From Minisyncoccota bacterium (GTDB lineage Bacteria > Patescibacteriota > Minisyncoccia > JAHIHE01 > JAGLIN01): a stretch of 64,000 bases of DNA. Location of the stretch: positions 27,617 to 91,616 of the forward strand of contig JAQUYG010000001.1 of the NCBI GenBank assembly GCA_028691985.1, in the 5' to 3' direction. The translations under genes and the position numbers were made by a program. The notes under the pieces were generated by a model, which saw only the letters and a list, made by a program, of their open reading frames with translations, had not been told where the DNA came from and made no database searches. This document shows, one piece after another, positions 15,066 to 62,999 of the stretch (position 1 is the first letter of the stretch; the number at the start of each line of letters is the position of its first letter).

Positions 15066-16244
15066 AACAATAGAAATGATTTTCTAGTTGTTTATGGCCA
15101 AAACCTATCAGTTTTTTCCAACAACTGCTCATCCTATCATACATTCATAAATATGTCAACCCCTGACAAGAAATATTACAATGCTTTCAATCTAATGCCG
15201 CAAATAGGCCCGGTGCGCTTTCGTAAGCTCCTTGCCCATTTTCCATCCATGCAAATCGCGTGGGAGGCAACTTTTTCTGAATTCAAGGAATCAGGCCTTG
15301 AAGAAAAAATCATCGAGAGAATTGTGGATGCTAGAAAAAATATAAACCCCGATGCCGAGTTTGAAAAATTAGAAAAAGAAAATATAAAAATTATTACGAA
15401 GAATGAAAGTTCCTATCCCAAAAATCTCCTGGAAATTTCTTCCGCTCCGGCGATGTTATATGTGAAAGGCGAAATGATTCCCGACGAATTTTGCATCGGC
15501 ATCGTCGGCTCGCGCAAGATCTCAGACTACGGAAGAAGAGTGGCCGAAGATTTTGCGCGGCAGCTTTCACAAAACGGCGTAACGCTCGCCAGCGGAATGG
15601 CTTATGGCGTGGACACGATTACTCACCGCGAATGCCTAAAGGCTAAAACTCGCACCCTGGCCGTCCTTGGTAGCGGCATCGACGAAAGAAGCATATACCC
15701 ATCATCCAACCGCCAAATCGCGCAAGAAATCGCAAACTGCGGATGCGTCCTCAGTGAATATCCGATCGGGACTCCCCCGCTCAAACAGAATTTCCCCGCC
15801 CGCAATCGCATCATCAGCGGACTATCTAAGGGCGTATTGGTTATCGAAGCTTCACAAACCTCCGGCTCGCTCCACACCGCCCGCTTCGCTCTGGAACAAA
15901 ACCGCGAAGTCTTCGCTGTGCCGGGAAACATCTATTCCAAAAATTCCGAAGGCACCAACAGCCTCATCAAAATGGGCGCCAAATCCGCCTGCAAAGTGGA
16001 GGATATTTTAGAAGAGTTCAACTTTGAAACAAACTCCGAGATCCGCGAAGCCAGAAAAATCATCCCCGACAGTCCTGAGGAAGAACTGATTTTGAACAAT
16101 CTCTCCTTCGACGAAGCGCTTCACATCGACAAACTTGCCGCCAAGACGCAAATAAAAACCGCCAGCCTGTCATCACTTCTCACTCTTATGGAAATGAAAG
16201 GAATGATTCGCGACATCGGCGGGATGCGATATATAAAAAAATAA
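15063..16244 (+). CDS. dprA: DNA processing protein DprA/Smf. The track ORF begins at a GTG, so the true start is uncertain and may be ATG at 15153.
   Basis: LMPQIGPVRFRKLLAHF...IGIVGSRKISDYGRRVAEDFARQLSQNGVTLASGMAYGVDTITH...VPGNIYS. Confidence 0.8.
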   Translation: MNNRNDFLVVYGQNLSVFSNNCSSYHTFINMSTPDKKYYNAFNLMPQIGPVRFRKLLAHFPSMQIAWEATFSEFKESGLEEKIIERIVDARKNINPDAEFEKLEKENIKIITKNESSYPKNLLEISSAPAMLYVKGEMIPDEFCIGIVGSRKISDYGRRVAEDFARQLSQNGVTLASGMAYGVDTITHRECLKAKTRTLAVLGSGIDERSIYPSSNRQIAQEIANCGCVLSEYPIGTPPLKQNFPARNRIISGLSKGVLVIEASQTSGSLHTARFALEQNREVFAVPGNIYSKNSEGTNSLIKMGAKSACKVEDILEEFNFETNSEIREARKIIPDSPEEELILNNLSFDEALHIDKLAAKTQIKTASLSSLLTLMEMKGMIRDIGGMRYIKK

Positions 16245-51776: not shown

Positions 51777-53915
51777 ATGAAAACTCTCTTAAAACAATAT
51801 TTCGGATATGATCAGTTCCGTCCGCTTCAAGAAGAAATCATCCAGAATGTCATCGAAAAAAATGACACTTTTGTGCTAATGCCGACCGGGGGAGGAAAGT
51901 CGCTCTGCTATCAATTGCCGGCACTCAAATTCAAAGGCATTACACTGGTAGTCTCCCCCCTTATCGCGCTTATGAAAGACCAAGTGGACGCGCTTCAGTC
52001 TTGCGGCATCCGCGCGGAGTTCATCAACTCCAGTCTGTCGGCAGGAGAAATACAGAAAATCTATGAAGAGACGGAAGGTGGTGAAATTAAAATTCTCTAT
52101 ATCGCGCCGGAAAGATTTGCTCTCAAAAGCTTCCAAGCTTGGGTACAATCTTTGCCCGTAAGCCTCATAGCGGTTGATGAAGCGCACTGCATATCTGAAT
52201 GGGGGCATGACTTCCGTCCTGAATACCGTAATTTGAGATATCTTCGCAAACTCTTTCCAAAAGTGCCGCTTATCGCCCTGACGGCAACCGCCACCGACAA
52301 AGTCCGCGAAGACATCATCAACCAGCTCGAGCTTCAAGAAGCGAAAATTTTTATTTCAAGCTTCAATCGAGAAAATCTGCATCTAAGTGTCGTGGAAAAG
52401 AAAAATGCCTTTCCCAAGCTCCTCGATATTCTGGACAAATACAGAGATGAATCCTCGATTATCTATTGTTTTTCGCGCAAAGAAACAGAAAAAATCGCCG
52501 AGAAACTCATCGGTAACGGCTTCAAGGCCTGTGCCTACCACGCGGGACTTTCCAAGGAGAAAAGAAAAAAGGCTCAAGATAGTTTCATAAAGGACAAGGT
52601 AAATGTTATCGTTGGCACTATCGCCTTCGGAATGGGTATCAATAAACCTGATGTACGGCTAGTCGTACATTACACCTATCCCAAAACTCTCGAAGGCTAT
52701 TATCAGGAGATCGGCCGTGCCGGACGAGACGGACTTCCGAGCGATTGCGTCATGTTTTATACCTACGCCGACACTCGCAAGCATGAATTTTTTATCAATC
52801 AGATCTATGACCAAGAGTTGAAAGGCCGTGCTGAAGAAAAGCTGGGGGAAATGATGACCTATGGCGAGCTTACCACTTGCCGGAAGAAATATGTCCTCCG
52901 CTATTTCGGGGAGAATTTCGAGAAAGATAATTGTGGCAGTTGTGACATCTGCCTCACAGATAAAATAATGTTTGATGCTACCGTCGTTTCCCAAAAAATC
53001 CTCTCCGCCGTCATCCGAACCGAAAACAAATTCGGTAAAGGCTATATCGCACAAGTGCTACGCGGGAAAAAAAATCAAAAAATATCAGCAAACGGACATG
53101 ACAGACTCTCCGTCTTCGGCATCGTCCGAGATTTTTCCGAAAATGAACTGGGGCAAATCATAAACCACTTGGTCGGTTTGGAATATCTGCGAAAAGACAT
53201 AGGCAAATATCCGACGCTAGGCATCACGCGAAAAGGAGTGGATTTCCTGAAAGGTAGTGAGCTTTTAGAAATTCCAAAGCCTCAAGCGGACATCATCAAG
53301 GAAATCAAGACCGGCAAATTCGATTACAACACAGAGCTGTTTGAGAAACTGCGCGAACTACGAAAAAGTCTGGCAGAAAAAGCCAATGTTCCTCCTTTTG
53401 TCATTTTTGGAGATCAGAGTCTGCAGGAAATGGCCTATTACCTACCGCAAAATAGAGAGGCTTTCGCGCGTATCGGCGGAGTAGGTGTAAAAAAATTGGA
53501 AGACCTGAGCGAAATCTTCCTTGGCACAATCGTGGATTTCACTACAAAAGAAAATCTTGCCCCTATCGAGATCCCCGATAAACCTTCCATGCGAACCACG
53601 AAAAATCCAAAAGTAGAAACCGCCTTGATAACTCAAGGGCTCATAGCTCAAAAAATACCTCTTGCTAAAATTGCAGAGAAGCAAGGACTGAAAATCGGCA
53701 CGATTATTAATCACATCACTCAGATAATTGACAGAGGGGAAGAGTTGGACCTGAGTTATATAGATTTTCCCCCAGAAAAAATAACGGAAATCGCCTCAGC
53801 TTTCGAAGAATGTGGTAATGAAAGGTTAAGACCGATTTTCGACTGCCTCGACGGAAAATATTCTTATGATGACATCCGTATGGCAGTAATCTTGATCAAA
53901 AATCGAGAAAAGTAA
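51777..53915 (+). CDS. recQ: ATP-dependent DNA helicase RecQ (with RQC/HRDC region)
   Basis: …FGYDQFRPLQEEII…LMPTGGGKSLCYQLPA…; the DEAH region is VDEAHCISEWGHDFRPEY; then …TATAT… and the Zn-binding CxxC…C. Confidence 0.9.
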   Translation: MKTLLKQYFGYDQFRPLQEEIIQNVIEKNDTFVLMPTGGGKSLCYQLPALKFKGITLVVSPLIALMKDQVDALQSCGIRAEFINSSLSAGEIQKIYEETEGGEIKILYIAPERFALKSFQAWVQSLPVSLIAVDEAHCISEWGHDFRPEYRNLRYLRKLFPKVPLIALTATATDKVREDIINQLELQEAKIFISSFNRENLHLSVVEKKNAFPKLLDILDKYRDESSIIYCFSRKETEKIAEKLIGNGFKACAYHAGLSKEKRKKAQDSFIKDKVNVIVGTIAFGMGINKPDVRLVVHYTYPKTLEGYYQEIGRAGRDGLPSDCVMFYTYADTRKHEFFINQIYDQELKGRAEEKLGEMMTYGELTTCRKKYVLRYFGENFEKDNCGSCDICLTDKIMFDATVVSQKILSAVIRTENKFGKGYIAQVLRGKKNQKISANGHDRLSVFGIVRDFSENELGQIINHLVGLEYLRKDIGKYPTLGITRKGVDFLKGSELLEIPKPQADIIKEIKTGKFDYNTELFEKLRELRKSLAEKANVPPFVIFGDQSLQEMAYYLPQNREAFARIGGVGVKKLEDLSEIFLGTIVDFTTKENLAPIEIPDKPSMRTTKNPKVETALITQGLIAQKIPLAKIAEKQGLKIGTIINHITQIIDRGEELDLSYIDFPPEKITEIASAFEECGNERLRPIFDCLDGKYSYDDIRMAVILIKNREK

Positions 53916-53924
53916 CAGATTACA

Positions 53925-53965
53925 AAAAAAAGGACTGGCCTCGCAGAATAGAAAGGCCGGTCTTT
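53925..53965. terminator. Bidirectional intrinsic terminator between recQ and the PIF1-like helicase gene
   Basis: AAAAAAAAGGACTGGCCtcgcagaatagaaaGGCCGGTCTTTTTTAT. Confidence 0.55.
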
Positions 53966-53988
53966 TTTATATCCAATTTGCCGGCTTC

Positions 53989-55371
53989 TTATCCAAAAAG
54001 CCCGCCGACATACTTTTCTCCACCATTTTTCTCGAGAAAATCTTTTTGCGTTTTTACCAGGTTTTTCTTGTCCATTTTTAGATAGTCTTTTTCGTCTTCT
54101 TCTGATTTAGCGAGCAATTCGCGATCAAGGATAATGACTTCCTCCTTCGCCCGAAGCGCCATCTCGTTAAAGCCCACCAAGCTCATTCCCGCCAGCGAAC
54201 GCACGCGGGAAAGCGCCACATAACCCATACCGAATTCGAAAGTTTTACGCAGATCGATTTCTGCCGCATCCAAGCTCATGCCCTGACTCTTGTGCACCGT
54301 AATCGCCCACGCCAGCCTGAGCGGCACCTGCCGGACCGAAGCAATGACCTCTTTGCCATCCTCCACGACCCATTGCTCCGGATAAGCCGTAATCAGATTG
54401 CCATCAAAAGTTCTTACCACAGGATAATTATCGTTTTCTTCGTCAAAATCCACAACCTTGCCCAAAGTACCATTAACAAAGCCCTTATTAAAATTATTTT
54501 TGACGAACATCACCACCGCCCCGATTTTCAGTGTCAGATTCTGCGGCGCCAAGCAATACCCTTTTCTCAATCTCTCCACCAGATTATCAACCCCTTCTGC
54601 TTCCATCTCGTAAGAAATCTCCTTAGTCTTCAGCTTATCCAGTTCCTGAAAATTATAATCCTCGACATCAATGTTATGCGTATGCAATTTTGTAGGCTTT
54701 ATCTCAGATTTGACTGTCTTACCCAAACGCTTTTCTAATATTTTTATAGTCTTCTCCGTCACTTCATTTTTTCGGATATCCCCGAGCAATTGCAAAAATT
54801 TCTTATCCGATTGTCGATGTTGCTCCTCCAGATAACAAACTCTGATATCCATATTATTCCAAATATGAGATTCTGTGACAAAGCGCCCGTCTTTCCCGCC
54901 CCGCTTGACCGGAGGCAACTGAAAAAAATCGCCGCAAAAAACCACCTGCATACCACCGAAAGGTCTCATGTCTTCTTTAAATGTCCTGCAAATCCAATCA
55001 ATCAGATCAAGTTGCTTGGCATTGAGCATCGAAATCTCATCTATTATCAGAACCTTGGTAAAAGCCACGCTACGGAATAAATAATTTTTCTTTTTAAGTG
55101 CGTTAATCTTATCAATTAACAACTCATCTTCAATCCCCATTCCGCACCAAGAATGAATCGTACGCCCACCCAGATGTGTCGCCGCAATGCCCGTAGAAGC
55201 AGTAACCGCCACTGCGATATTATTATCCCTAAGATATTTTATATATTGCGTCAACAAAAAAGTCTTGCCCGACCCCGCCGGACCCGTCAAAAAAACGCTC
55301 TCCCCCGATTTCAATATATCCAAAGCTTGCTTCTGTTTCATAATTTGTTTTTTTCCTAGATAAAATACCAT
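53989..55371 (-). CDS. PIF1/RecD-like SF1B DNA helicase
   Basis: Walker A FLTGPAGSGKTFLL; …VLIIDEISMLNAKQLDLID…FGGMQVVFCGDFFQLPPV; C-terminal …AITVHKSQGMSLDAAEIDL…. Confidence 0.8.
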   Translation of the reverse strand: MVFYLGKKQIMKQKQALDILKSGESVFLTGPAGSGKTFLLTQYIKYLRDNNIAVAVTASTGIAATHLGGRTIHSWCGMGIEDELLIDKINALKKKNYLFRSVAFTKVLIIDEISMLNAKQLDLIDWICRTFKEDMRPFGGMQVVFCGDFFQLPPVKRGGKDGRFVTESHIWNNMDIRVCYLEEQHRQSDKKFLQLLGDIRKNEVTEKTIKILEKRLGKTVKSEIKPTKLHTHNIDVEDYNFQELDKLKTKEISYEMEAEGVDNLVERLRKGYCLAPQNLTLKIGAVVMFVKNNFNKGFVNGTLGKVVDFDEENDNYPVVRTFDGNLITAYPEQWVVEDGKEVIASVRQVPLRLAWAITVHKSQGMSLDAAEIDLRKTFEFGMGYVALSRVRSLAGMSLVGFNEMALRAKEEVIILDRELLAKSEEDEKDYLKMDKKNLVKTQKDFLEKNGGEKYVGGLFG

Positions 55372-55523
55372 TTACACCCTTAATTCAGGCAGAGCCCCCC
55401 TCGCCGTGTCTATCATCCTCACCATTTCAGAATACCACAAACGAGAAAGAGATTCTACCTTTGCCGGGAAACGAAAAACTTGTATAATACTAATAAGTAG
55501 GCTTTTATCAATAACAATCATAT

Positions 55524-56240
55524 ATGTTCAACCCCGAATGCCCGATAGGCCAGATTCCTGCAGAAGAACCCTTCAAAGAGGAACTGTCGGAAAACGAAGG
55601 AGAGGAAGAGAAAAAAGAAAAACAATCCCTCGCCAAAGAAATCATCGACAATGGCTACGAAGAAATTAAAACATTGGCGGAAAATATTTACGAAAAAATC
55701 AAATCGGACGACACCAAAATAGAAATGGCATGTATTGTTACCGAAACCTTGGATAAAATTGCCAATGACGAAGAGATAGTGAAGTATCTCCAAGAACACG
55801 GATGCATTGACGATAAAATTGCTAAAATCAGCGTGCTGATGATACCCTTGATTGAAAAATCCATCCTAGTCGAGCAAACTGAACTCTCAGAGCAAAAGAA
55901 AGAAGAAGCAAGAAAAACAGCAGAGAAAGTGAAAGGTGTTTGTAAAGCGCTCCTCTTTAAAGACGGTCCCGCTATCGACGCAAAAACTATTAAAGAGGTT
56001 CTAGCCGTCATCATTCCAGAAAATCCCGAAGATGATTATACCTATATCGACCAGGCAGGAGATAGCCTGATTGGATTGGCAACCCGATATGAAGGCAACA
56101 GGGCTTCGACTATCAGAACTTTTGCATACATCCTAAAAAATAAAGCGTTTCAAAGTGTGGTATCGGGTGTCTTCAGAAAATGGCTGGAGAATAGAACGGA
56201 AGAAGAAAATATCGAAGACAAAGCAAGCACAACAACATAG
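55524..56240 (+). CDS. Hypothetical acidic protein
   Basis: 238 aa, E/K-rich; no family recognised. Confidence 0.35.
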   Translation: MFNPECPIGQIPAEEPFKEELSENEGEEEKKEKQSLAKEIIDNGYEEIKTLAENIYEKIKSDDTKIEMACIVTETLDKIANDEEIVKYLQEHGCIDDKIAKISVLMIPLIEKSILVEQTELSEQKKEEARKTAEKVKGVCKALLFKDGPAIDAKTIKEVLAVIIPENPEDDYTYIDQAGDSLIGLATRYEGNRASTIRTFAYILKNKAFQSVVSGVFRKWLENRTEEENIEDKASTTT

Positions 56241-56310
56241 GACACAATCGAGCAGCTACAACAGAGCTGCTTTATTGTGTCCGCAGGATTTAATAAAACC
56301 ATTTTGTATT

Positions 56311-56661
56311 TTACTCTAATAATTTTATCCTGATTCCTAACACTCCATATTCCGCCTCTTGTTCTTTGGTATAAACTTCATACATACAAGTTTCCAAGTA
56401 TTTTCTATCCGATTCCTCATATCCCAATAGTCCTGTTGGCAAATCCGAAAGCATTTCCGTAAAAGTATCATACCGGAACAACCCGACAACCCTTGTTTTG
56501 ATTTTATTCTCTAAGTCTGGCAGCTCTGAAAATTCTATCTCATCTCCTAGCATTATAATCTGCCGTTTCTCATCATAAAGCCGGAGTTCCAAAGTTTTCT
56601 TACCACTTTTCATTCTTTCAAAAGGACCCGATTGTAACTTCATTCGATATAGCATTCTCAT
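56311..56661 (-). CDS. ASCH-domain (PUA-like) protein
   Basis: MRMLYRMKLQSGPFERMKSGKKTLELRLYDEKRQIIMLGDEIEF is the ASCH N-terminal pattern. Confidence 0.6.
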   Translation of the reverse strand: MRMLYRMKLQSGPFERMKSGKKTLELRLYDEKRQIIMLGDEIEFSELPDLENKIKTRVVGLFRYDTFTEMLSDLPTGLLGYEESDRKYLETCMYEVYTKEQEAEYGVLGIRIKLLE

Positions 56662-56666
56662 AACAA

Positions 56667-57413
56667 TTATTTTCTTAATAAATCCGCGAGTGGCTTGAAA
56701 TCCTCTTTTTTGATTTCTTCCTCAAAAAACTCCCCCTTACTCCAGAAGATTTTATAAGCCTTAGCAGACGATTTTGAACTTATGATACGATATTTGTCAT
56801 CAACAATCTCCAGCGCAGCGCAATTATCGATTGCGATTGCCACTCCCGAAGTCCTGTCCATCATTTCTCTTAATGCTTTCTTTCTATTTTTTTCAACATC
56901 ATAGTGTGGACAATGCAAAGCCTTTATCACTCCCAGCCCCGATACCTTGATAAGCTCATCCTTTCCACTAGTAAACCTCAACGAATCACTAAGCCCGTTT
57001 TTAAACCAACATATCGACCCTGCGCTTAATCCTGCCATAATTTTTCCTTTTTGGACGGCATCAACCAGCAACTCATCAACTCCATTTTTCCTCCAGATTT
57101 TCATCATAGAAAGCGTATCTCCCCCTCCCACATAAATTATATCCGCTCTGTCTATTTTGTCCTTAATTTCCTTTTTAGTTAAACCGCCTTTTATGAGAAG
57201 AAGGTTGTCCATCTCACAACCCAATTTCTCTCCAAAATATTTTCGCACGACTTCAATATATAAAGCCGAATCCAGACTTGCCGTCGGGACAAAAAGCAAC
57301 CTCGGCCTTTTCTTCCCCGCAAGTCCTATAATTTCCTTGTCGATTTCTTCCGTCTCAATCGAAAATCCAGGCCTCCCGATTTCCCCACCACCGATTGCAA
57401 TAATTTTATACAT
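56667..57413 (-). CDS. Peptidase S51 (dipeptidase E / cyanophycinase-like) family protein
   Basis: …LLFVPTAS…IYVGGGDT…IMAGLSAGSICW is the S51 Ser-nucleophile region. Confidence 0.7.
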   Translation of the reverse strand: MYKIIAIGGGEIGRPGFSIETEEIDKEIIGLAGKKRPRLLFVPTASLDSALYIEVVRKYFGEKLGCEMDNLLLIKGGLTKKEIKDKIDRADIIYVGGGDTLSMMKIWRKNGVDELLVDAVQKGKIMAGLSAGSICWFKNGLSDSLRFTSGKDELIKVSGLGVIKALHCPHYDVEKNRKKALREMMDRTSGVAIAIDNCAALEIVDDKYRIISSKSSAKAYKIFWSKGEFFEEEIKKEDFKPLADLLRK

Positions 57414-57452
57414 ATAAAATCCCCATAAATCTTTAAAAAACCCTGCGCCATT

Positions 57453-57770
57453 TTATCTCCAAACCCGTTTTTTATTTATCTCTTCTTTTTCCCTAAACGC
57501 TTTCTCCAGATCAATCCCGTAACGATTGGCAATAGAAAATAAAAAAATCATAATATCAGCCATCTCCTCACCTACAGAAGTTGTTTTAGAATTTTCATCC
57601 ATCTTCATATTTTCCGCCTTACGAATTGCCTTAAAAAGCTCTCCCGTTTCTTCGCCCAAATGAAGCGCTCTTTGCAAAGCCGTCTGATCCGTAAAACCGC
57701 GCTCTTTCTCCAGCTCAGTTACATAATTTTGAAAATCTCCCAAGATTGGATTTTCTCTTAACTCAGGCAT
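57453..57770 (-). CDS. MazG-like nucleotide pyrophosphohydrolase (second copy)
   Basis: …LHLGEETGELFKAIRK…EEMADIMIFLFSIANRYGIDLEKAFREK. Confidence 0.65.
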   Translation of the reverse strand: MPELRENPILGDFQNYVTELEKERGFTDQTALQRALHLGEETGELFKAIRKAENMKMDENSKTTSVGEEMADIMIFLFSIANRYGIDLEKAFREKEEINKKRVWR

Positions 57771-57795
57771 AATTTTGTGATAATATGTTTTATAA

Positions 57796-58314
57796 TTATA
57801 ATCGGATTTTGCCTATTGCCAACTTTATCTTTTCCTCAGAATATCTAAGATAATAATCCATCGCTTTTTCATCTCCCATCTCATACAAAGATTTAGATTC
57901 CCCTAAAGCAGCGATGACATGATTCAACGGATACTTAAAATCTTCTCTCCTCACCCCCGCTGAGTTGCCCATAAATTTATAAGGGATTTCCGTCTCAAAC
58001 TTATCTATCATATTGCCTTGCCTATCCAAAAAAGCAAAAGCTCTAACTATTATTAGCAACTCTCCCTCTTTTAATATTTCACCTCGCAAAATCCTATCGA
58101 CCACACTTTTAGAATCATCACCGTCTTCTGAGCCTTCATATTTCATCCTATCATCCGCACCGACATAAATATCAATATTTCCCCTCCGACCCGCCTCTTT
58201 ATAGGAGTGCAAGGCCTTTTCGAGCGCTTTATTAATTGAACTCCCATGCTCTTCACCCTGCGACTGTAAACCGGAATCAATAAGATCTAAGAAAAAGACA
58301 ATCAGGAAGTCCAC
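57796..58314 (-). CDS. Hypothetical protein
   Basis: 172 aa; no confident family. Confidence 0.35.
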   Translation of the reverse strand: MDFLIVFFLDLIDSGLQSQGEEHGSSINKALEKALHSYKEAGRRGNIDIYVGADDRMKYEGSEDGDDSKSVVDRILRGEILKEGELLIIVRAFAFLDRQGNMIDKFETEIPYKFMGNSAGVRREDFKYPLNHVIAALGESKSLYEMGDEKAMDYYLRYSEEKIKLAIGKIRL

Positions 58315-58408
58315 AGCCAGAAAGCAGTCCTTTTATAATCTCAAATTTATCTTTATTTTGGGTTGCTATTAATATTTTCATAAAATTCATATTTTTAGTA
58401 AATATTAA

Positions 58409-58762
58409 TCAAATCTTATCACAAATCCTATAAAAATCATAACCGCTGAGAAGAAGGCCGCAAGAGCAATCCTTCTTTATATATCTCTGATGATTACATT
58501 TGAGGAATATAATCGAGTCCAAACACTTCTTGGCAAAAAAGACAAACCACGCCCCATAATCCACGAATTTACCTTCGCCGGCTCAATCAACGGTACTGTT
58601 TATGGTCGTTTTTACACTGCCAAGACTAAAAAGAAACTTCTAATATCAGGTGAAATTCGAGAACACGCACATTATCATTGCACGAGGAAATCAAAAAAAT
58701 GTAATCAGAAGAAAAATCTTCCTCTAGAAAAGTTAGAAACGATGCTTGAGAAAGAAATATAA
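58409..58762 (+). pseudogene. Remnant of a large serine recombinase. It covers the recombinase/Zn-ribbon-region fragment, the Cys ligands are lost, and there is no catalytic domain.
   Basis: The open frame reads …ITFEEYNRVQTLLGKKDKPRPIIHEFTFAGSINGTVYGRFYTAKTKKK…YHCTRKSKKCNQKKNLPLEKLETMLEKEI. This matches the I.eEef..VQ..L…Y.FsGLl.CG.CG…YYrC…C…LE..V pattern of phage-type serine integrases. Confidence 0.45.
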
Positions 58763-59324
58763 AAATAAAATATCCTGCGCCAGAAGCAGAATATCTAAGA
58801 TTAGAACCGACAAAAATACCGATGGATAAAACAAAAACAGAGGCTGCTGCCTCCGTTCGTGCACACTGGCTCTGTAGTAATTTTATATACTTGATCCAAT
58901 CATAGCATAGTTATTTTACCAATGATTTTCCATTTTTATTACATATTCCCCTAATCACAAGATATCTCTTGATATTATTATGCACTTTACATTCAAATAG
59001 AAAAAATTACCATAAGTACCATCATTCCTTTTACTGCTTCAGAAAAGGAATGCCTTACACTTAATCTTTTCGGCTAGCGCTCCATATGAATTCGCCCCCC
59101 CCTAATACCGTTTATGTTCACGGTCAACCTAAGACCGTTCTTTAATCCTCTTCTGATTCAAATTTACCTTTTGAGGGTATAAAAAATTATCGCGTATCTA
59201 AACGATAATTTTGTCGGCTCCGAAAGCTAGACGATATTAAAACCTATTTCTTAAACAGCAACGAGTATTTTTACATAACTAAACCAAGCGAGGAAGGCGC
59301 CATAATTAATTCCATAAAACGATT

Positions 59325-60020
59325 TTATTCTGTCCAAATTCTTACTTTGCCACAACCCTCTTCAGCATCATTCACAATATCGAATATACTATCAATTTTA
59401 GGACTATATGCTTCAAGTTCATCACCATTTTTTAGTGTTACTCTAACTTTCCTATCATGCGTTTGACCACCCTCTCTTATATTACAATTGGCTGCCGATT
59501 CTTTTATTAGATTCCAATTCTTTTTGTTCTGATCTGATTCCTTATTTACAAAAATAATAGAGCTAAATTCGGATTTTAAAATCAGCTTGCCATCCTCATC
59601 AAATAAAAACTTTTCCGATTCAGCAAGTAATTTTTTAAATATTTCTTCCTGCGAGTTTTCGCAATACATTTGATTTGATGTAAATAAACCGAAATCAATA
59701 TTATCTCCATCTTTTTTGAATTCACTTGAGAAACTATTACAATCAGTGGTCCCATTTAGTTCTCCGCTTTCCGTAAATGTGATAGCAAAAGCATCATGCA
59801 CCCTTGGAAAAATTATTTCGTCTTTGCTTACAATAGTTTTTTCCCAATCCCATCTTGCCCCAACAAGATTGTTATCAGTTGGTTTGTTTAAAACCATCGG
59901 ATTATCATCTTGGTTTAATTGCCCCCTTATAGAACTTTTACTATAAATTCCAGTTATATACGCGAATACGATCATTATAATAAATACAAATGTAACTATT
60001 ATTGTATTAGATTTTTTCAT
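59325..60020 (-). CDS. Hypothetical secreted protein
   Basis: N-terminal signal/TM (IIVTFVFIIMIVFAYITGIYS); contains Cys pairs. Confidence 0.4.
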   Translation of the reverse strand: MKKSNTIIVTFVFIIMIVFAYITGIYSKSSIRGQLNQDDNPMVLNKPTDNNLVGARWDWEKTIVSKDEIIFPRVHDAFAITFTESGELNGTTDCNSFSSEFKKDGDNIDFGLFTSNQMYCENSQEEIFKKLLAESEKFLFDEDGKLILKSEFSSIIFVNKESDQNKKNWNLIKESAANCNIREGGQTHDRKVRVTLKNGDELEAYSPKIDSIFDIVNDAEEGCGKVRIWTE

Positions 60021-60345
60021 TTTCTATTTTTATTATTTATTATCTATTTATTACAACGATCGAGAAAGAATAAAGTAACTTATTTTTTATATTTCGATTA
60101 TACCAAGTATCCCTAATCTTTTCAAACCTCTGATTTGAAGTATAAAAAATACACCTGATATTGAGCATATTTAAAATTACTTCAGTAATGAGATGCAAAC
60201 CGGTCGGTTGTACAGAAATATTACCGTCAGTTCGATACCTGCTTCTGTCACAAAATATCAGATATTTTTCTACTTTCTATAAAAGTAATTAAATTCTTGA
60301 TTAGCAAAAGGTTTCATACTACTATATAGAGAGAAAAGGTAAATT

Positions 60346-61041
60346 TTGAAATATTCTATGAAAAAATATCCATTAATACTCATTCTATGTCTTGTGTTAT
60401 TTTTCTCTCTCCTGATCGTTTTAGAAAAAAGTAAGTACGATATTGCAGATATTATCAACGAAATTATAAGGTTCGTCGAAAAGGCAGATGATAAAAAAGA
60501 TTGGGACACCAAAGTGATTGAAGATGATTGCACGCGCAATTTAGTGACAGCAGCGGTTGAGCAAACTACAAAAAATGTCGTTTACGACCCAACCTATTTT
60601 CATATAGACTATCCGAACGGCGATGTACCATCGGACAGAGGGGTTTGTACTGATGTAATAATAAGAGCTTATCGCTCAGTCGGAGCTGATTTGCAGAAAG
60701 AGGTCCATGAGGATATGATAAAAAATTTTGACCTCTACCCCAAAAAATGGGGAATGACCGAAACTGATACCAATATCGATCATCGTCGTGTCCCTAATCT
60801 TCAAGTCTTCTTCAAACATTTCGGAGAAGAACTCGAAATTTCCAAGAATCCCGAATCTTATCAGCCAGGTGATATTGTGACTTGGAACATGCCCTCAGGT
60901 CGACCGCACATCGGGCTGGTCAGCAATTTCAGTAAAAATAACATACCCTTAATCATCCATAATATAGGCACCGGACCAAAGATAGATGACATGCTTTTTG
61001 TTTTTGAAATAAGCGGACATTATAGATATTTCTGTAAATAA
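60346..61041 (+). CDS. DUF1287-family secreted protein
   Basis: …YFHIDYPNGDVPSDRGVCTDVIIRAYRSVGADLQ…GDIVTWNMPSGRPHIGLVS… The assignment to DUF1287 is tentative. Confidence 0.5.
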   Translation: MKYSMKKYPLILILCLVLFFSLLIVLEKSKYDIADIINEIIRFVEKADDKKDWDTKVIEDDCTRNLVTAAVEQTTKNVVYDPTYFHIDYPNGDVPSDRGVCTDVIIRAYRSVGADLQKEVHEDMIKNFDLYPKKWGMTETDTNIDHRRVPNLQVFFKHFGEELEISKNPESYQPGDIVTWNMPSGRPHIGLVSNFSKNNIPLIIHNIGTGPKIDDMLFVFEISGHYRYFCK

Positions 61042-61065
61042 AGATCAGCTAACAGAAAAACAGAA

Positions 61066-61095
61066 GTTGCACCAAGGGGTGCTGCTTTTTGTTCA
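61066..61095 (+). terminator. Intrinsic terminator
   Basis: GTTGCACCaaggGGTGCTGCTTTTTGTT. Confidence 0.5.
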
Positions 61096-61176
61096 TGATT
61101 TTGGACAATGCTGGAACGATTTTATTTAACCCTTTTTCTCGCAACAGCTACCGATTCTGACAAATATCTTATCAGG

Positions 61177-61614
61177 TTACGAATTTGACAGATTAAACAT
61201 ATTGTCATATTTTACACTCGGCAATGAATATATTGCAGAAACGGGGGGGTAAGTTGCAACTTGCAATAAATTTGGAGCTATCAGTAAAGCAGTAGAGGAA
61301 TTGGAATTTACGATATGGTCTAGAATCAAATACATTAGAGATACGAAAAAGAAAGTCAGGGCTATCACTGTGGAAACGATTAGCGAACCAGTTGATCATG
61401 AAGCTCTATATCTAAAGCCAGATATAAACTCGATTTTATCTGTGATTCCAAGATAGTCAGTATTAGCAAAATCCAGATGGGAGCATCTTCTTATCAACCC
61501 ATAAACTTTGAAGTCTTTGCCTAATAAGAATTTAGCAAATATGGTCCATCTTGACCTGAAATTCCTGTTATAAGCGCCACCTTTTGCATATATTCTACTA
61601 AAAAAGTTATTCAA
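61177..61614 (-). pseudogene. gmd: Decayed remnant of GDP-mannose 4,6-dehydratase (N-terminal ~110 aa only, multiple frameshifts)
   Basis: The fragment …RWTIFAKFLLGKDFKVYGLIRRCSHLDFANTDYL… aligns with Gmd …[33 protein letters not shown]… In the next frame …FLYCFTDSSKFIASC aligns with …LHYGDLTDSSNLTRIL. Confidence 0.45.
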
Positions 61615-61739
61615 GCATTCCCCCTTCGGTCATGTCATCGTTTATTCAAATTAAAGTATTGGTTACGCACAAAATATGACTGTAGGATTCCCTTAAGTCA
61701 CTGCAATAGCAACCCCGAGTCATTTTCAGACGGAGATCC

Positions 61740-62408
61740 TTATATATACAATTCTTTTTTGAAATTTTCAGCAAAACCACTCATTATTTCAATCCGTTCT
61801 CTGGCTATAGTATTAGCCGTTTCAGTTAGAAAAATTTCTCCTTTTTTATACTTTTCAATTAATAAAATTATATAATGTAACGAAGAAGCAGTCTCACATC
61901 CGTTTAGAGGTATTAATGGATCATAAATTGGACGACTATATTGCCTCGATTGCAGGGAACTGGCAATAATCCGACTAATAGATATCGCACCCAGACAATC
62001 AAGCTTGTCTGCATCCCGAAGAATCTTTGATTCAAGGGTTTCTCCTTTTTGATTAGAACGATGATTTATAATATAATAAACTATTTGGTCTATGATATTA
62101 TCAGAAAGACCATACTTAGACAATATCTCCTTTGCCAACTCTCCACCTTTTATTGCGTGATTTATACACTCACCTATTTCTTCGTGCACTCTGGCGATAT
62201 CGTGCAAGAGAGCAGCAACGGACAATACTAGCAAATCGCCGCCCTCTTTTTCGTGTATAATTTCAACAATTTTACACACTCGTTTAGTATGTGACATCCC
62301 ATGAGAATAATCTTCCAGTTCATCAGGGAAATATACCGTTATTTCCTTCCTAAGAGAATTTAATAACGAATCACGACTATCTGATAAAATATTTTTTGAC
62401 ATTAACAT
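61740..62408 (-). CDS. HD-domain phosphohydrolase
   Basis: …YSHGMSHTKRVCKIVEII…LVLSVAALLHDIAR… is an H…HD motif. Confidence 0.7.
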   Translation of the reverse strand: MLMSKNILSDSRDSLLNSLRKEITVYFPDELEDYSHGMSHTKRVCKIVEIIHEKEGGDLLVLSVAALLHDIARVHEEIGECINHAIKGGELAKEILSKYGLSDNIIDQIVYYIINHRSNQKGETLESKILRDADKLDCLGAISISRIIASSLQSRQYSRPIYDPLIPLNGCETASSLHYIILLIEKYKKGEIFLTETANTIARERIEIMSGFAENFKKELYI

Positions 62409-62459: not shown

Positions 62460-62999
62460 CTACAGCAAAACTTCTAATTGATTAGCTAAATCATATACTA
62501 TCTTTTTCCCGATAGATTCATCACAAGAATCTAAAAAATCTCTTATGCTCTTAATATACTTACTATTATTAGCAAATTTAGGATAAAGATTTTGCTCTCC
62601 CCTCTTACAGATTTTAATAAAATTTCTAAGATGCGATGTGAAGTCAGCCATCTTAATGATTTTAGCTCCCGTAGATATCGTTTTTATTTTTTTATAGTAT
62701 TCCTCTTTTTCTTCTTGATTATAGTTTTTTGGATGAGACACTTCTTGCACTAAATCGGCAATTTCTCTTGAAAAAATACTCTTTATTTCTTCATAGGTAG
62801 TAGAAGTGTCTTCTAGCGTATCATGAAGGAGCCCGGCAACTAGAACCTCTGTATCTTGAATGTCAAATTCATCTCTCATAATGTTAAAGACCTCGAGAAA
62901 ATGATTTTTCTTACCTATTTTTGCAAATTTATCTGCCGCAAATTCTTTTGCTGACTCTATTTGTTTTTCACATTCGATTGATAGTGATTTTGTGGTCAT
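62460..62999 (-). CDS. HD-domain hydrolase, RelA/SpoT small-alarmone-hydrolase-like (paralog of 43586..44125)
   Basis: …EVLVAGLLHDTLEDTSTTYEEIKSIFSREIADLVQEVS…. Confidence 0.65.
   Translation of the reverse strand: MTTKSLSIECEKQIESAKEFAADKFAKIGKKNHFLEVFNIMRDEFDIQDTEVLVAGLLHDTLEDTSTTYEEIKSIFSREIADLVQEVSHPKNYNQEEKEEYYKKIKTISTGAKIIKMADFTSHLRNFIKICKRGEQNLYPKFANNSKYIKSIRDFLDSCDESIGKKIVYDLANQLEVLL

Follow-up and report, generated by a model that had tools for sequence, protein, structure and literature searches.

A 64,000-nucleotide stretch of a Minisyncoccota genome (contig JAQUYG010000001.1, positions 27,617 to 91,616; hereafter the window) contains, at 58490-58872, what is left of the gene of a large serine recombinase. 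The original prediction, made from the letters alone, had taken the whole of 53989-59324 for a mobile element degrading in place, with a PIF1-like helicase, an ASCH protein, a peptidase of family S51, MazG, and several hypothetical proteins as surviving cargo that might still act against phages or in nucleotide metabolism, and with the recombinase fragment as its end. Our analysis leads to a smaller object. The recombinase gene is indeed decaying; however, gene order in sister genomes and nucleotide composition do not bear out 53989-58314 as surviving cargo, and 58490-58872 is an ordinary, inert integrase scar at a hypervariable junction, not the edge of a decaying island. We consider it likely that an element encoding a serine recombinase once lay between a native pair of genes, MazG and a neighbor resembling Ham1/RdgB, and a tRNA gene, and that this element has since been almost wholly deleted, leaving 383 nt of integrase in two pieces together with an embedded terminator hairpin.

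Identity and anatomy of the recombinase remnant

How securely can so short a fragment be assigned? The large-serine-recombinase origin that had been proposed for 58409..58762 holds, and only its start has to be moved: homology begins at 58490, the stretch 58409-58489 is not homologous, and residues 1-26 of the query go unmatched in almost every phmmer match. In an exhaustive phmmer search of 1.84 billion representative proteins with the fragment as the query, 269 proteins were matched at E<=1e-3 and 20 at E<=1e-10, the top non-self match being 54% identical (E=2.9e-20). Most of the full-length matches are 530-575 aa long and are aligned at about residues 255-350; among ten matches scanned against Pfam, all eight full-length ones contain Resolvase and Zn_ribbon_recom domains, and seven of these eight contain a Recombinase domain as well (E<=1e-3). 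By tblastn, the fragment is 53% identical to the protein P0004 over 93 aa (E=1e-25) and 49% identical to P0006 over 100 aa (E=5e-20), and overall its identity to full-length three-domain recombinases, across the Recombinase/Zn-ribbon junction and the C-terminal tail, is 44-54%. Two profile collections gave weak matches that are concordant in falling on the same region of the fragment, one to phrog_95 'integrase' (5.4e-4, profile positions 343-433 of 651) and the other to the NCBIfam family XisF (0.029, profile positions 262-351 of 465). A word-indexed protein search returned only the fragment itself, phmmer against the PDB gave only noise, and tblastn against phages found nothing relevant. It is the exhaustive phmmer search that settles the homology and thus identifies the fragment as a remnant of a large serine recombinase; the open reading frame (ORF) at 58490-58762 (+) derives from such a gene, and its membership in the family is one of descent, as a pseudogene. 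The call is not contradicted by the sister genomes described below, which have no intact non-recombinase gene at the site.

The stretch itself appears in more than one assembly. The 90-aa ORF at 58490-58762 is identical to the NCBI protein PHI66_00465, and a separately assembled Logan contig of 6.2 kb (L001) spans the stretch from a DUF1287 gene to the PIF1-like helicase, with ten of ten window protein queries, the recombinase fragment included, 100% identical. The junctions are therefore present in two assemblies.

The 383 nt of the remnant fall into two pieces. Piece A (58490..58783, +), equivalent to residues 264-363 of the 556-aa P0006, runs from the close of the Recombinase domain through the Zn ribbon; its open part is the 90-aa ORF, after which come two in-frame stops. 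Of the Recombinase domain (PF07508), no more than the last ~25 residues are left. The cysteine ligands of the Zn ribbon had all been thought to be replaced, which the alignment bears out for the first pair, where RCGECGC has become NGTVYGR, and corrects for the second pair (YHC...KKC), which is kept. Piece B (58771..58872, +) is the C-terminal tail, YPAPEAEYLRLEPTKIPMDKTKTEAAASVRAHWL, in a frame other than that of piece A; it matches residues 263-296 of P0005 (68% identical, E=1e-9) and residues 501-538 of P0006 (E=0.009) by tblastn, and by blastn it is 76% identical over 102 nt to the related locus L087. Between the two pieces, ~140 codons have dropped out, those of the coiled coil (equivalent to residues 364-500 of P0006), a motif within the Zn-ribbon domain that governs synapsis and directionality in large serine recombinases.

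On the 5' side of 58490, about 263 recombinase codons have been lost, the catalytic domain included. As predicted, no catalytic domain is present: when five full-length or partial relatives were used as tblastn queries, residues 1-256 had no match anywhere in the window. In other words, the features of a functional large serine recombinase, i.e. the catalytic resolvase domain (PF00239), a four-Cys Zn ribbon (PF13408), and the coiled coil, are all wanting. Since the catalytic serine domain is gone, the Zn ribbon is halved, and the coiled coil is missing, nothing enzymatically functional is left, and the remnant cannot recombine DNA.

What borders the remnant? On its 5' side, a spacer of 108 nt (58382..58489) separates the break from the start of the Ham1-like gene, and it is here that the missing element body and the 263 codons would have lain; an AT-rich palindrome/tandem repeat is found at 58368-58409. 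Toward the 3' end, a terminator scan located a terminator-like hairpin on the - strand inside the recombinase tail (58825..58858), with a 10-bp stem followed by UUUUUGUUUU; the hairpin at 58835-58858 folds at -17.7 kcal/mol. The remnant closes with TGGCTC (58867..58872; GAGCCA on the - strand), which, compared by eye, are the last bases in common with the nearest relative, L087. In L087, the equivalent of TGGCTC is the CCA end of a convergent tRNA, and the sequence goes on into that tRNA (CGGCGGTAGGACTCGAACC...); unlike L087, the window past 58872 is AT-rich and has neither a T arm nor a T-loop motif. ARAGORN found no tRNA in the window, and, apart from one sub-threshold antitoxin RNA match described below, Rfam gave no tRNA or other RNA match at E<=1 in 53-64 kb and none at the gathering score in the whole window.

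Intact relatives and their tRNA genes

Nine loci with related recombinases were fetched, L152 having two elements. In eight of the nine, the recombinase gene has the element body on its upstream side, and its 3' end runs antisense into, or overlaps, a convergent host tRNA gene. The overlapped genes encode tRNA-Gln in L085 (11609-11682), tRNA-Gly(gcc) in L086 (11594-11668), tRNA-Gly(tcc) in L088 (11593-11665), tRNA-Trp in L089 (4709-4784), tRNA-Ser(gga) in L178 (11594-11681), and tRNA-Ser and tRNA-Leu in the two elements of L152 (5779-5866 and 8764-8853); in L087, a partial tRNA-like end is found at the contig edge (935-989). The recombinase is the last gene of the element in the relatives examined, and its conserved final Trp codon, TGG, is complementary to the CCA with which the tRNA ends. 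Upstream of the recombinases, we find D5_N primase, Toprim_2, DnaG Zn-ribbon with AAA_25, and Rep3; the cargo includes SIR2/Nmad3, restriction-modification genes, and a type IV secretion system coupling protein with a relaxase; and downstream are host genes, for example those for L33 and UvrC and ribosomal-protein operons. By this gene layout, the elements of the clade extend 5' from the recombinase gene and meet host DNA at its 3' end.

The hairpin of the window also has counterparts among these loci. In four relatives, a hairpin with a U run is found on the tRNA strand, just past the tRNA 3' end and inside the recombinase tail; the hairpins of L087 (885-935), L088 (11545-11596), and L089 (4660-4712) are comparable to the one in the window, that of L086 is weak, and L085 has none. 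We infer that the hairpin in the recombinase tail may be the terminator of the convergent tRNA, encoded within the integrase gene. As for the far ends of the related elements, no long repeats were found that would represent a displaced tRNA copy.

Targeting of tRNA genes is not something for which serine integrases are commonly known, and the relatives look like a clade of serine integrases that does so. Tentatively, and stopping a little short of favoring the idea, we suggest that the remnant comes from an uncharacterized clade of large serine recombinases of uncultured genomes whose members target many tRNA genes (Gln, Gly, Trp, Ser, Leu), end antisense inside the tRNA with their last Trp codon on the CCA end, and often hold the tRNA terminator in the integrase tail, their elements being tycheposon-like, with primase/helicase modules and defense or transfer cargo; the scar would then record a former insertion at a hotspot upstream of MazG, after which both the element and its target tRNA were lost. 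The consistent antisense overlap with tRNA genes is the more interesting result of this study, and it is a property of the other loci, not of the scar in the window.

MazG itself is found near recombinases of this clade in other genomes. In L152 (4031-10438), a MazG homologue (57% identical) sits in a 3-kb host segment with three tRNA genes, and on either side a recombinase element points away from the segment and overlaps the outermost tRNA gene there (Ser, Leu); L149 has the same arrangement. Such a layout amounts to the tandem occupation of neighboring tRNA targets by the recombinase clade. We rejected the notion that MazG is recurrent cargo of the clade, which recombinases near MazG homologues in L149, L150, and L152 had brought up, since MazG in L152 is in host DNA between two outward-facing elements and thus belongs to the flank.

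Resident genes and a hypervariable junction

Toward lower coordinates from the scar, the window holds RecQ (51777-53915, +), the PIF1-like helicase (53989-55371, -; PF05970, 4e-40), an acidic 238-aa ORF of no family (acid238; 55524-56240, +), ASCH (56311-56661, -), the peptidase S51 (56667-57413, -; 1e-46), and MazG (57453-57770, -). Pfam supports the annotations of PIF1, ASCH, S51, and MazG just as they had been given, as it does those of the META-domain and DUF1287 genes on the other side of the scar. Are these genes passengers or residents? Two sister genomes, one found by a RecQ scan of a genome collection and the other by a MazG scan of metagenomes, provide a comparison. Identity to the window in L002 (Ca. 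Paceibacterota STD2_77) is 85% for RecQ, 73% for PIF1, 58% for ASCH, 61% for S51, and 82% for MazG, and in L098 it is 85%, 80%, 56%, 60%, and 90%, respectively. The order and orientations of GIY-YIG, RecQ, PIF1, ASCH, S51, and MazG are kept in both, neither has a recombinase at its MazG-to-RecQ locus, and DNA similarity to the window stops just upstream of MazG (at 57776 for L002 and 57801 for L098). A comparison with sister genomes for an empty site had been proposed; the MazG-S51-ASCH-PIF1 block is present beside RecQ in L002 and in L098.

Other expectations for an integrated element are likewise disappointed. For 54-58 kb, tetranucleotide composition is unremarkable within the window (z -0.4 to -1.2, GC 0.39-0.42), and the deviation that had been looked for there is found at 58-63 kb instead. 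Around 53.9 and 59.3 kb, the att-like direct repeats that had been proposed come down to short, AT-rich matches at chance level, and each member of the best repeat pair (57837 and 58787, 18 of 20 bases) falls within a conserved coding region. Besides the integrase, searches for element-type genes with Pfam, PHROGs, NCBIfam, and PADLOC show only the helicase, ASCH, S51, MazG, and unannotated ORFs, and the primases and replication proteins of the related intact elements are not in the block. The idea of cargo with an anti-phage function finds no backing in PADLOC, which detects no defense system: PIF1 has only generic superfamily 1 helicase similarity (RecD-like, 2e-20), HD222 has one weak match to Cas10 (2.1e-5, 21.7 bits), and seven other proteins, including ASCH, S51, MazG, and the 172-aa ORF discussed below, have no match.

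Two side observations concern this region. The acidic ORF has no Pfam, PHROG, or NCBIfam match; its sole match is one in PADLOC to HamA/DUF1837, which is weak (E=3.6e-4, 18 bits) and may be a low-complexity artifact. In the convergent intergenic region between RecQ and PIF1, at 53885-53967 (+), Rfam gives its one match below E=1 for the whole of 53-64 kb. This match, to the OrzO-P antitoxin RNA, is sub-threshold (E=0.3; 28.7 bits, where the gathering score is 60) and is most likely just the shared RecQ/PIF1 terminator hairpin.

The last member of the block is the gene nearest to the scar. What had been described as a 172-aa hypothetical protein (57796-58314) is instead the greater part of a 194-aa, putatively Ham1/RdgB-like gene (57796-58381, -) with a 1-nt frameshift at about 58297, beside a T5 run. 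The start codon is at 58381, and the N-terminus, MKILIATQNKDKFEIIKGLLSGCGLPDC, is in another frame and matches P0003 and L100; tblastx shows the first 21 codons of P0003 to be encoded at 58381-58319, in a frame other than that of the 172-aa ORF, and across the frameshift the gene reads MKILIATQNKDKFEIIKGLLSGCGLPDC / FFLDLIDSGLQSQ... P0003 (46% identical) is the only homologue cluster of the 172-aa ORF in the word-indexed search, and its operon neighbors are a cytidylate-kinase fusion, an HhH-GPD glycosylase, and a PfkB kinase. In L100, an unbroken version of 194 aa (341-925) lies immediately upstream of a MazG with 74% identity. Against the Pfam family Ham1p_like, P0003 scores 22.2 bits (1.4e-4) where the cut-off is 22.5 bits, over its N-terminal 66 residues only; its best PDB matches are to E. 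coli RdgB/YggV (E=0.02-0.05), and its AF2 model, with a pLDDT (predicted local distance difference test) of 46, is too poor for fold comparison. In our reading, 57796-58381 is a gene native to the lineage, a putative Ham1/RdgB-like partner of MazG, whose copy in the window is frameshifted or misassembled. Taken together, PIF1, ASCH, S51, MazG, and the Ham1-like gene are resident genes of the lineage, a neighborhood of DNA-repair and nucleotide house-cleaning functions next to RecQ.

Could the whole of 53989-59324 nonetheless be one decayed element, with PIF1, ASCH, S51, MazG, and the 172-aa gene as its cargo and the recombinase remnant as its end? The intact relatives have their element body on the 5' side of the recombinase, which is where the PIF1-to-MazG genes sit, and several of these genes match phage families (PIF1, phrog_325, 8e-75; ASCH, phrog_19935, 5e-21; MazG, phrog_3301, 3e-10). 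Additionally, two slots in the block vary: between PIF1 and ASCH, there is the acidic ORF in the window, a HIT gene in L002, and nothing in L098, and between S51 and MazG, L002 has an extra 205-aa ORF (15623-16240, -; no Pfam match at E<=0.001). On the other hand, the gene order beside RecQ is kept in two sister genomes that have no recombinase nearby, the protein identities of the block (58-90%) are in the range of those of flanking core genes (55-85%), its composition is typical, and att repeats are lacking. Not one of the nine related elements carries PIF1, ASCH, S51, or MazG genes, and the block genes are opposite in strand to the recombinase, whereas the immediate upstream genes of the relatives are co-directional with it. 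We regard a single element of this extent as improbable. In passing, the 205-aa ORF of L002 resembles, by eye only, an IS200/REP-associated tyrosine transposase.

On the other side of the scar, beyond a non-coding tract (58873..59324), are genes for a META-domain protein (59325-60020, -), the DUF1287 protein (60346-61041, +; Pfam, 5e-69), and two HD-domain proteins (61740-62408 and 62460-62999, -). In the 698-nt gap between DUF1287 and the HD-domain gene is a putative pseudogene of gmd (GDP-mannose 4,6-dehydratase; 61177..61640, -), reduced to the N-terminal ~100 codons with several frameshifts. Six-frame translation gives MQKVALITGISGQDGPYL and then, in another frame, AKFLLGKDFKVYGLIRR, which we take to be Gmd from its likeness to the N-terminal motif of that enzyme; the predicted remnant is real and frameshifted. 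The region from 58 to 63 kb has the most atypical tetranucleotide composition of the window (z 1.8 to 2.7) and its lowest GC (0.32-0.35), and it is not syntenic with L002 or L098. A cassette at 60288-61169, consisting of the DUF1287 gene and about 60-130 nt on each flank, has 85-88% DNA identity to L093 (9269-10100) and L094 (5072-5953), where its neighbors are entirely different from those in the window, and the sister metagenome-assembled genome (MAG) has the cassette on another contig (L096, 9869-10613); the DUF1287 gene behaves like a small relocating cassette or a resident of a fast-rearranging region. A metagenome scan with the META protein, made to look for an empty or occupied site, found no relatives. 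Upstream of MazG, each of the three closest genomes and L100 has different DNA, which marks the junction as a hypervariable spot.

These features raise the question of whether an island lies to the right instead, such that 58.9-63 kb (META, DUF1287, the gmd pseudogene, and the two HD genes) would be a degraded element with the recombinase remnant as its left end. The atypical tetranucleotides (GC about 0.34), the missing synteny with either sister, the presence of a pseudogene, and the DUF1287 cassette, with its other neighbors on other contigs and its other contig in the sister MAG, would all fit. However, eight of the nine relatives have host DNA, beginning with the tRNA gene, beyond the recombinase 3' end; the stretch contains no replication, transfer, or other mobile-element genes and is bounded by no second recombinase, tRNA, or repeat; and the closest named DUF1287 homologues are from Pacebacteria/Patescibacteria, so this gene is native to the lineage. 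We therefore think an island on the right unlikely. It is harder still to believe that the 90-aa stub or the tract beyond it has been retained for a function, whether as a DNA-binding regulator, as the terminator or 3' untranslated region of META, or as a small RNA. The ORF is open and has an ATG start, the strong terminator-like hairpin at 58835-58858 survives, and the tract folds better than shuffles (z -3.3), yet Zn ligands have been lost, stops interrupt a conserved segment, the next piece is in another frame, and one gene caller does not call the ORF at all. The tract matches no RNA family, the window abounds in gaps about as long, and the tract has no homologue in anything searched, so conservation cannot be shown. 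We consider a retained function very improbable.

The tract deserves a few more words, as 58763-59324 had been singled out as an ORF-free stretch of 562 nt with hairpins. It does lack any ORF >43 aa (58873-59324 lacks any >34 aa), and it folds better than shuffles on both strands (z=-3.3 on the - strand and -2.3 on the + strand); its first 110 nt, however, are recombinase tail (58771-58872). Nor is its length special, given that the window has 13 ORF-free gaps >250 nt, five of them of about 560 nt or more. What remains, 58873..59324, contains several hairpins and has no detectable homologue: it has no Rfam match and no blastn match to plasmids or phages, and beyond 58872 no tblastx or blastn match to any fetched locus was found. 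Most likely it is intergenic or leftover DNA, with the 3' region of the META gene included. Group I introns that interrupt tRNAs in Patescibacteria sit in the anticodon loop (PMC13011429), and we looked at the tract as such an interrupted tRNA. In that case one would expect a normal T arm next to GAGCCA; there is none, and Rfam gives no intron match, so this candidate was rejected.

Origin of the scar and its likeness to known systems

How, then, would the scar have come about? In the order that we infer, an element would first have integrated between the Ham1-like/MazG pair and a tRNA gene. A first deletion would have taken the element body along with recombinase codons 1-263, a next one the coiled coil (about 140 codons), and a further one the tRNA itself, and point decay would have destroyed the first pair of Zn ligands and introduced the stops and the change of frame. 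A number of points weigh against this history. Pfam does not recognize the fragment, even at E<=10. The window has no tRNA and no tRNA fragment >6 nt, and the former tRNA junction is suggested by analogy to the relatives only, among which the ninth locus, L090, has no adjacent tRNA; taken alone, the 6-nt match TGGCTC is not significant. The exact junction was found neither as an empty site nor as an occupied one, the three closest genomes differing upstream of MazG. That a tRNA gene should have been lost calls for an explanation, such as a redundant copy; alternatively, a rearrangement may have moved the remnant to its present place. Additionally, an assembly error could account for the frameshift in the Ham1-like gene. 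Even with these points counted, an almost wholly deleted serine-recombinase element is the explanation that we think probable.

For annotation, the consequence is that the locus should be described as a recombinase pseudogene beside a conserved RecQ/PIF1/ASCH/S51/MazG/Ham1-like neighborhood and not as a degraded island with anti-phage cargo. In a genome that would usually be regarded as streamlined, three decayed genes (recombinase, Ham1-like, and gmd) are found within 4 kb at a hypervariable junction.

The remnant shares by homology the Resolvase + Recombinase + Zn_ribbon_recom ancestry of the phiC31, Bxb1, A118, TP901-1, and XisF type of recombinase; in comparison with large serine recombinases of the phiC31/Bxb1 type, ~134 of ~555 codons survive. 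The likeness of the neighboring gene to the non-canonical purine NTP pyrophosphatases Ham1/RdgB/ITPA is of another kind: its N-terminus, MKILIATQNKDKF..., resembles the N-terminal motif of RdgB, the likeness of its homologue is weak and limited to the first ~70 residues, and the copy in the window is frameshifted. For the element as a whole, tycheposons offer a possible analogy, as an integrase at the element edge that abuts a tRNA gene, an adjoining primase/helicase, and variable cargo appear to be common to them and to the intact relatives of the remnant. In the window, unlike in these tycheposon-like relatives, the tRNA and the element body are both gone. The two kinds of element also differ in their enzymes: tycheposons have a tyrosine recombinase, whereas the relatives of the remnant have a serine recombinase whose reading frame ends antisense inside the tRNA.

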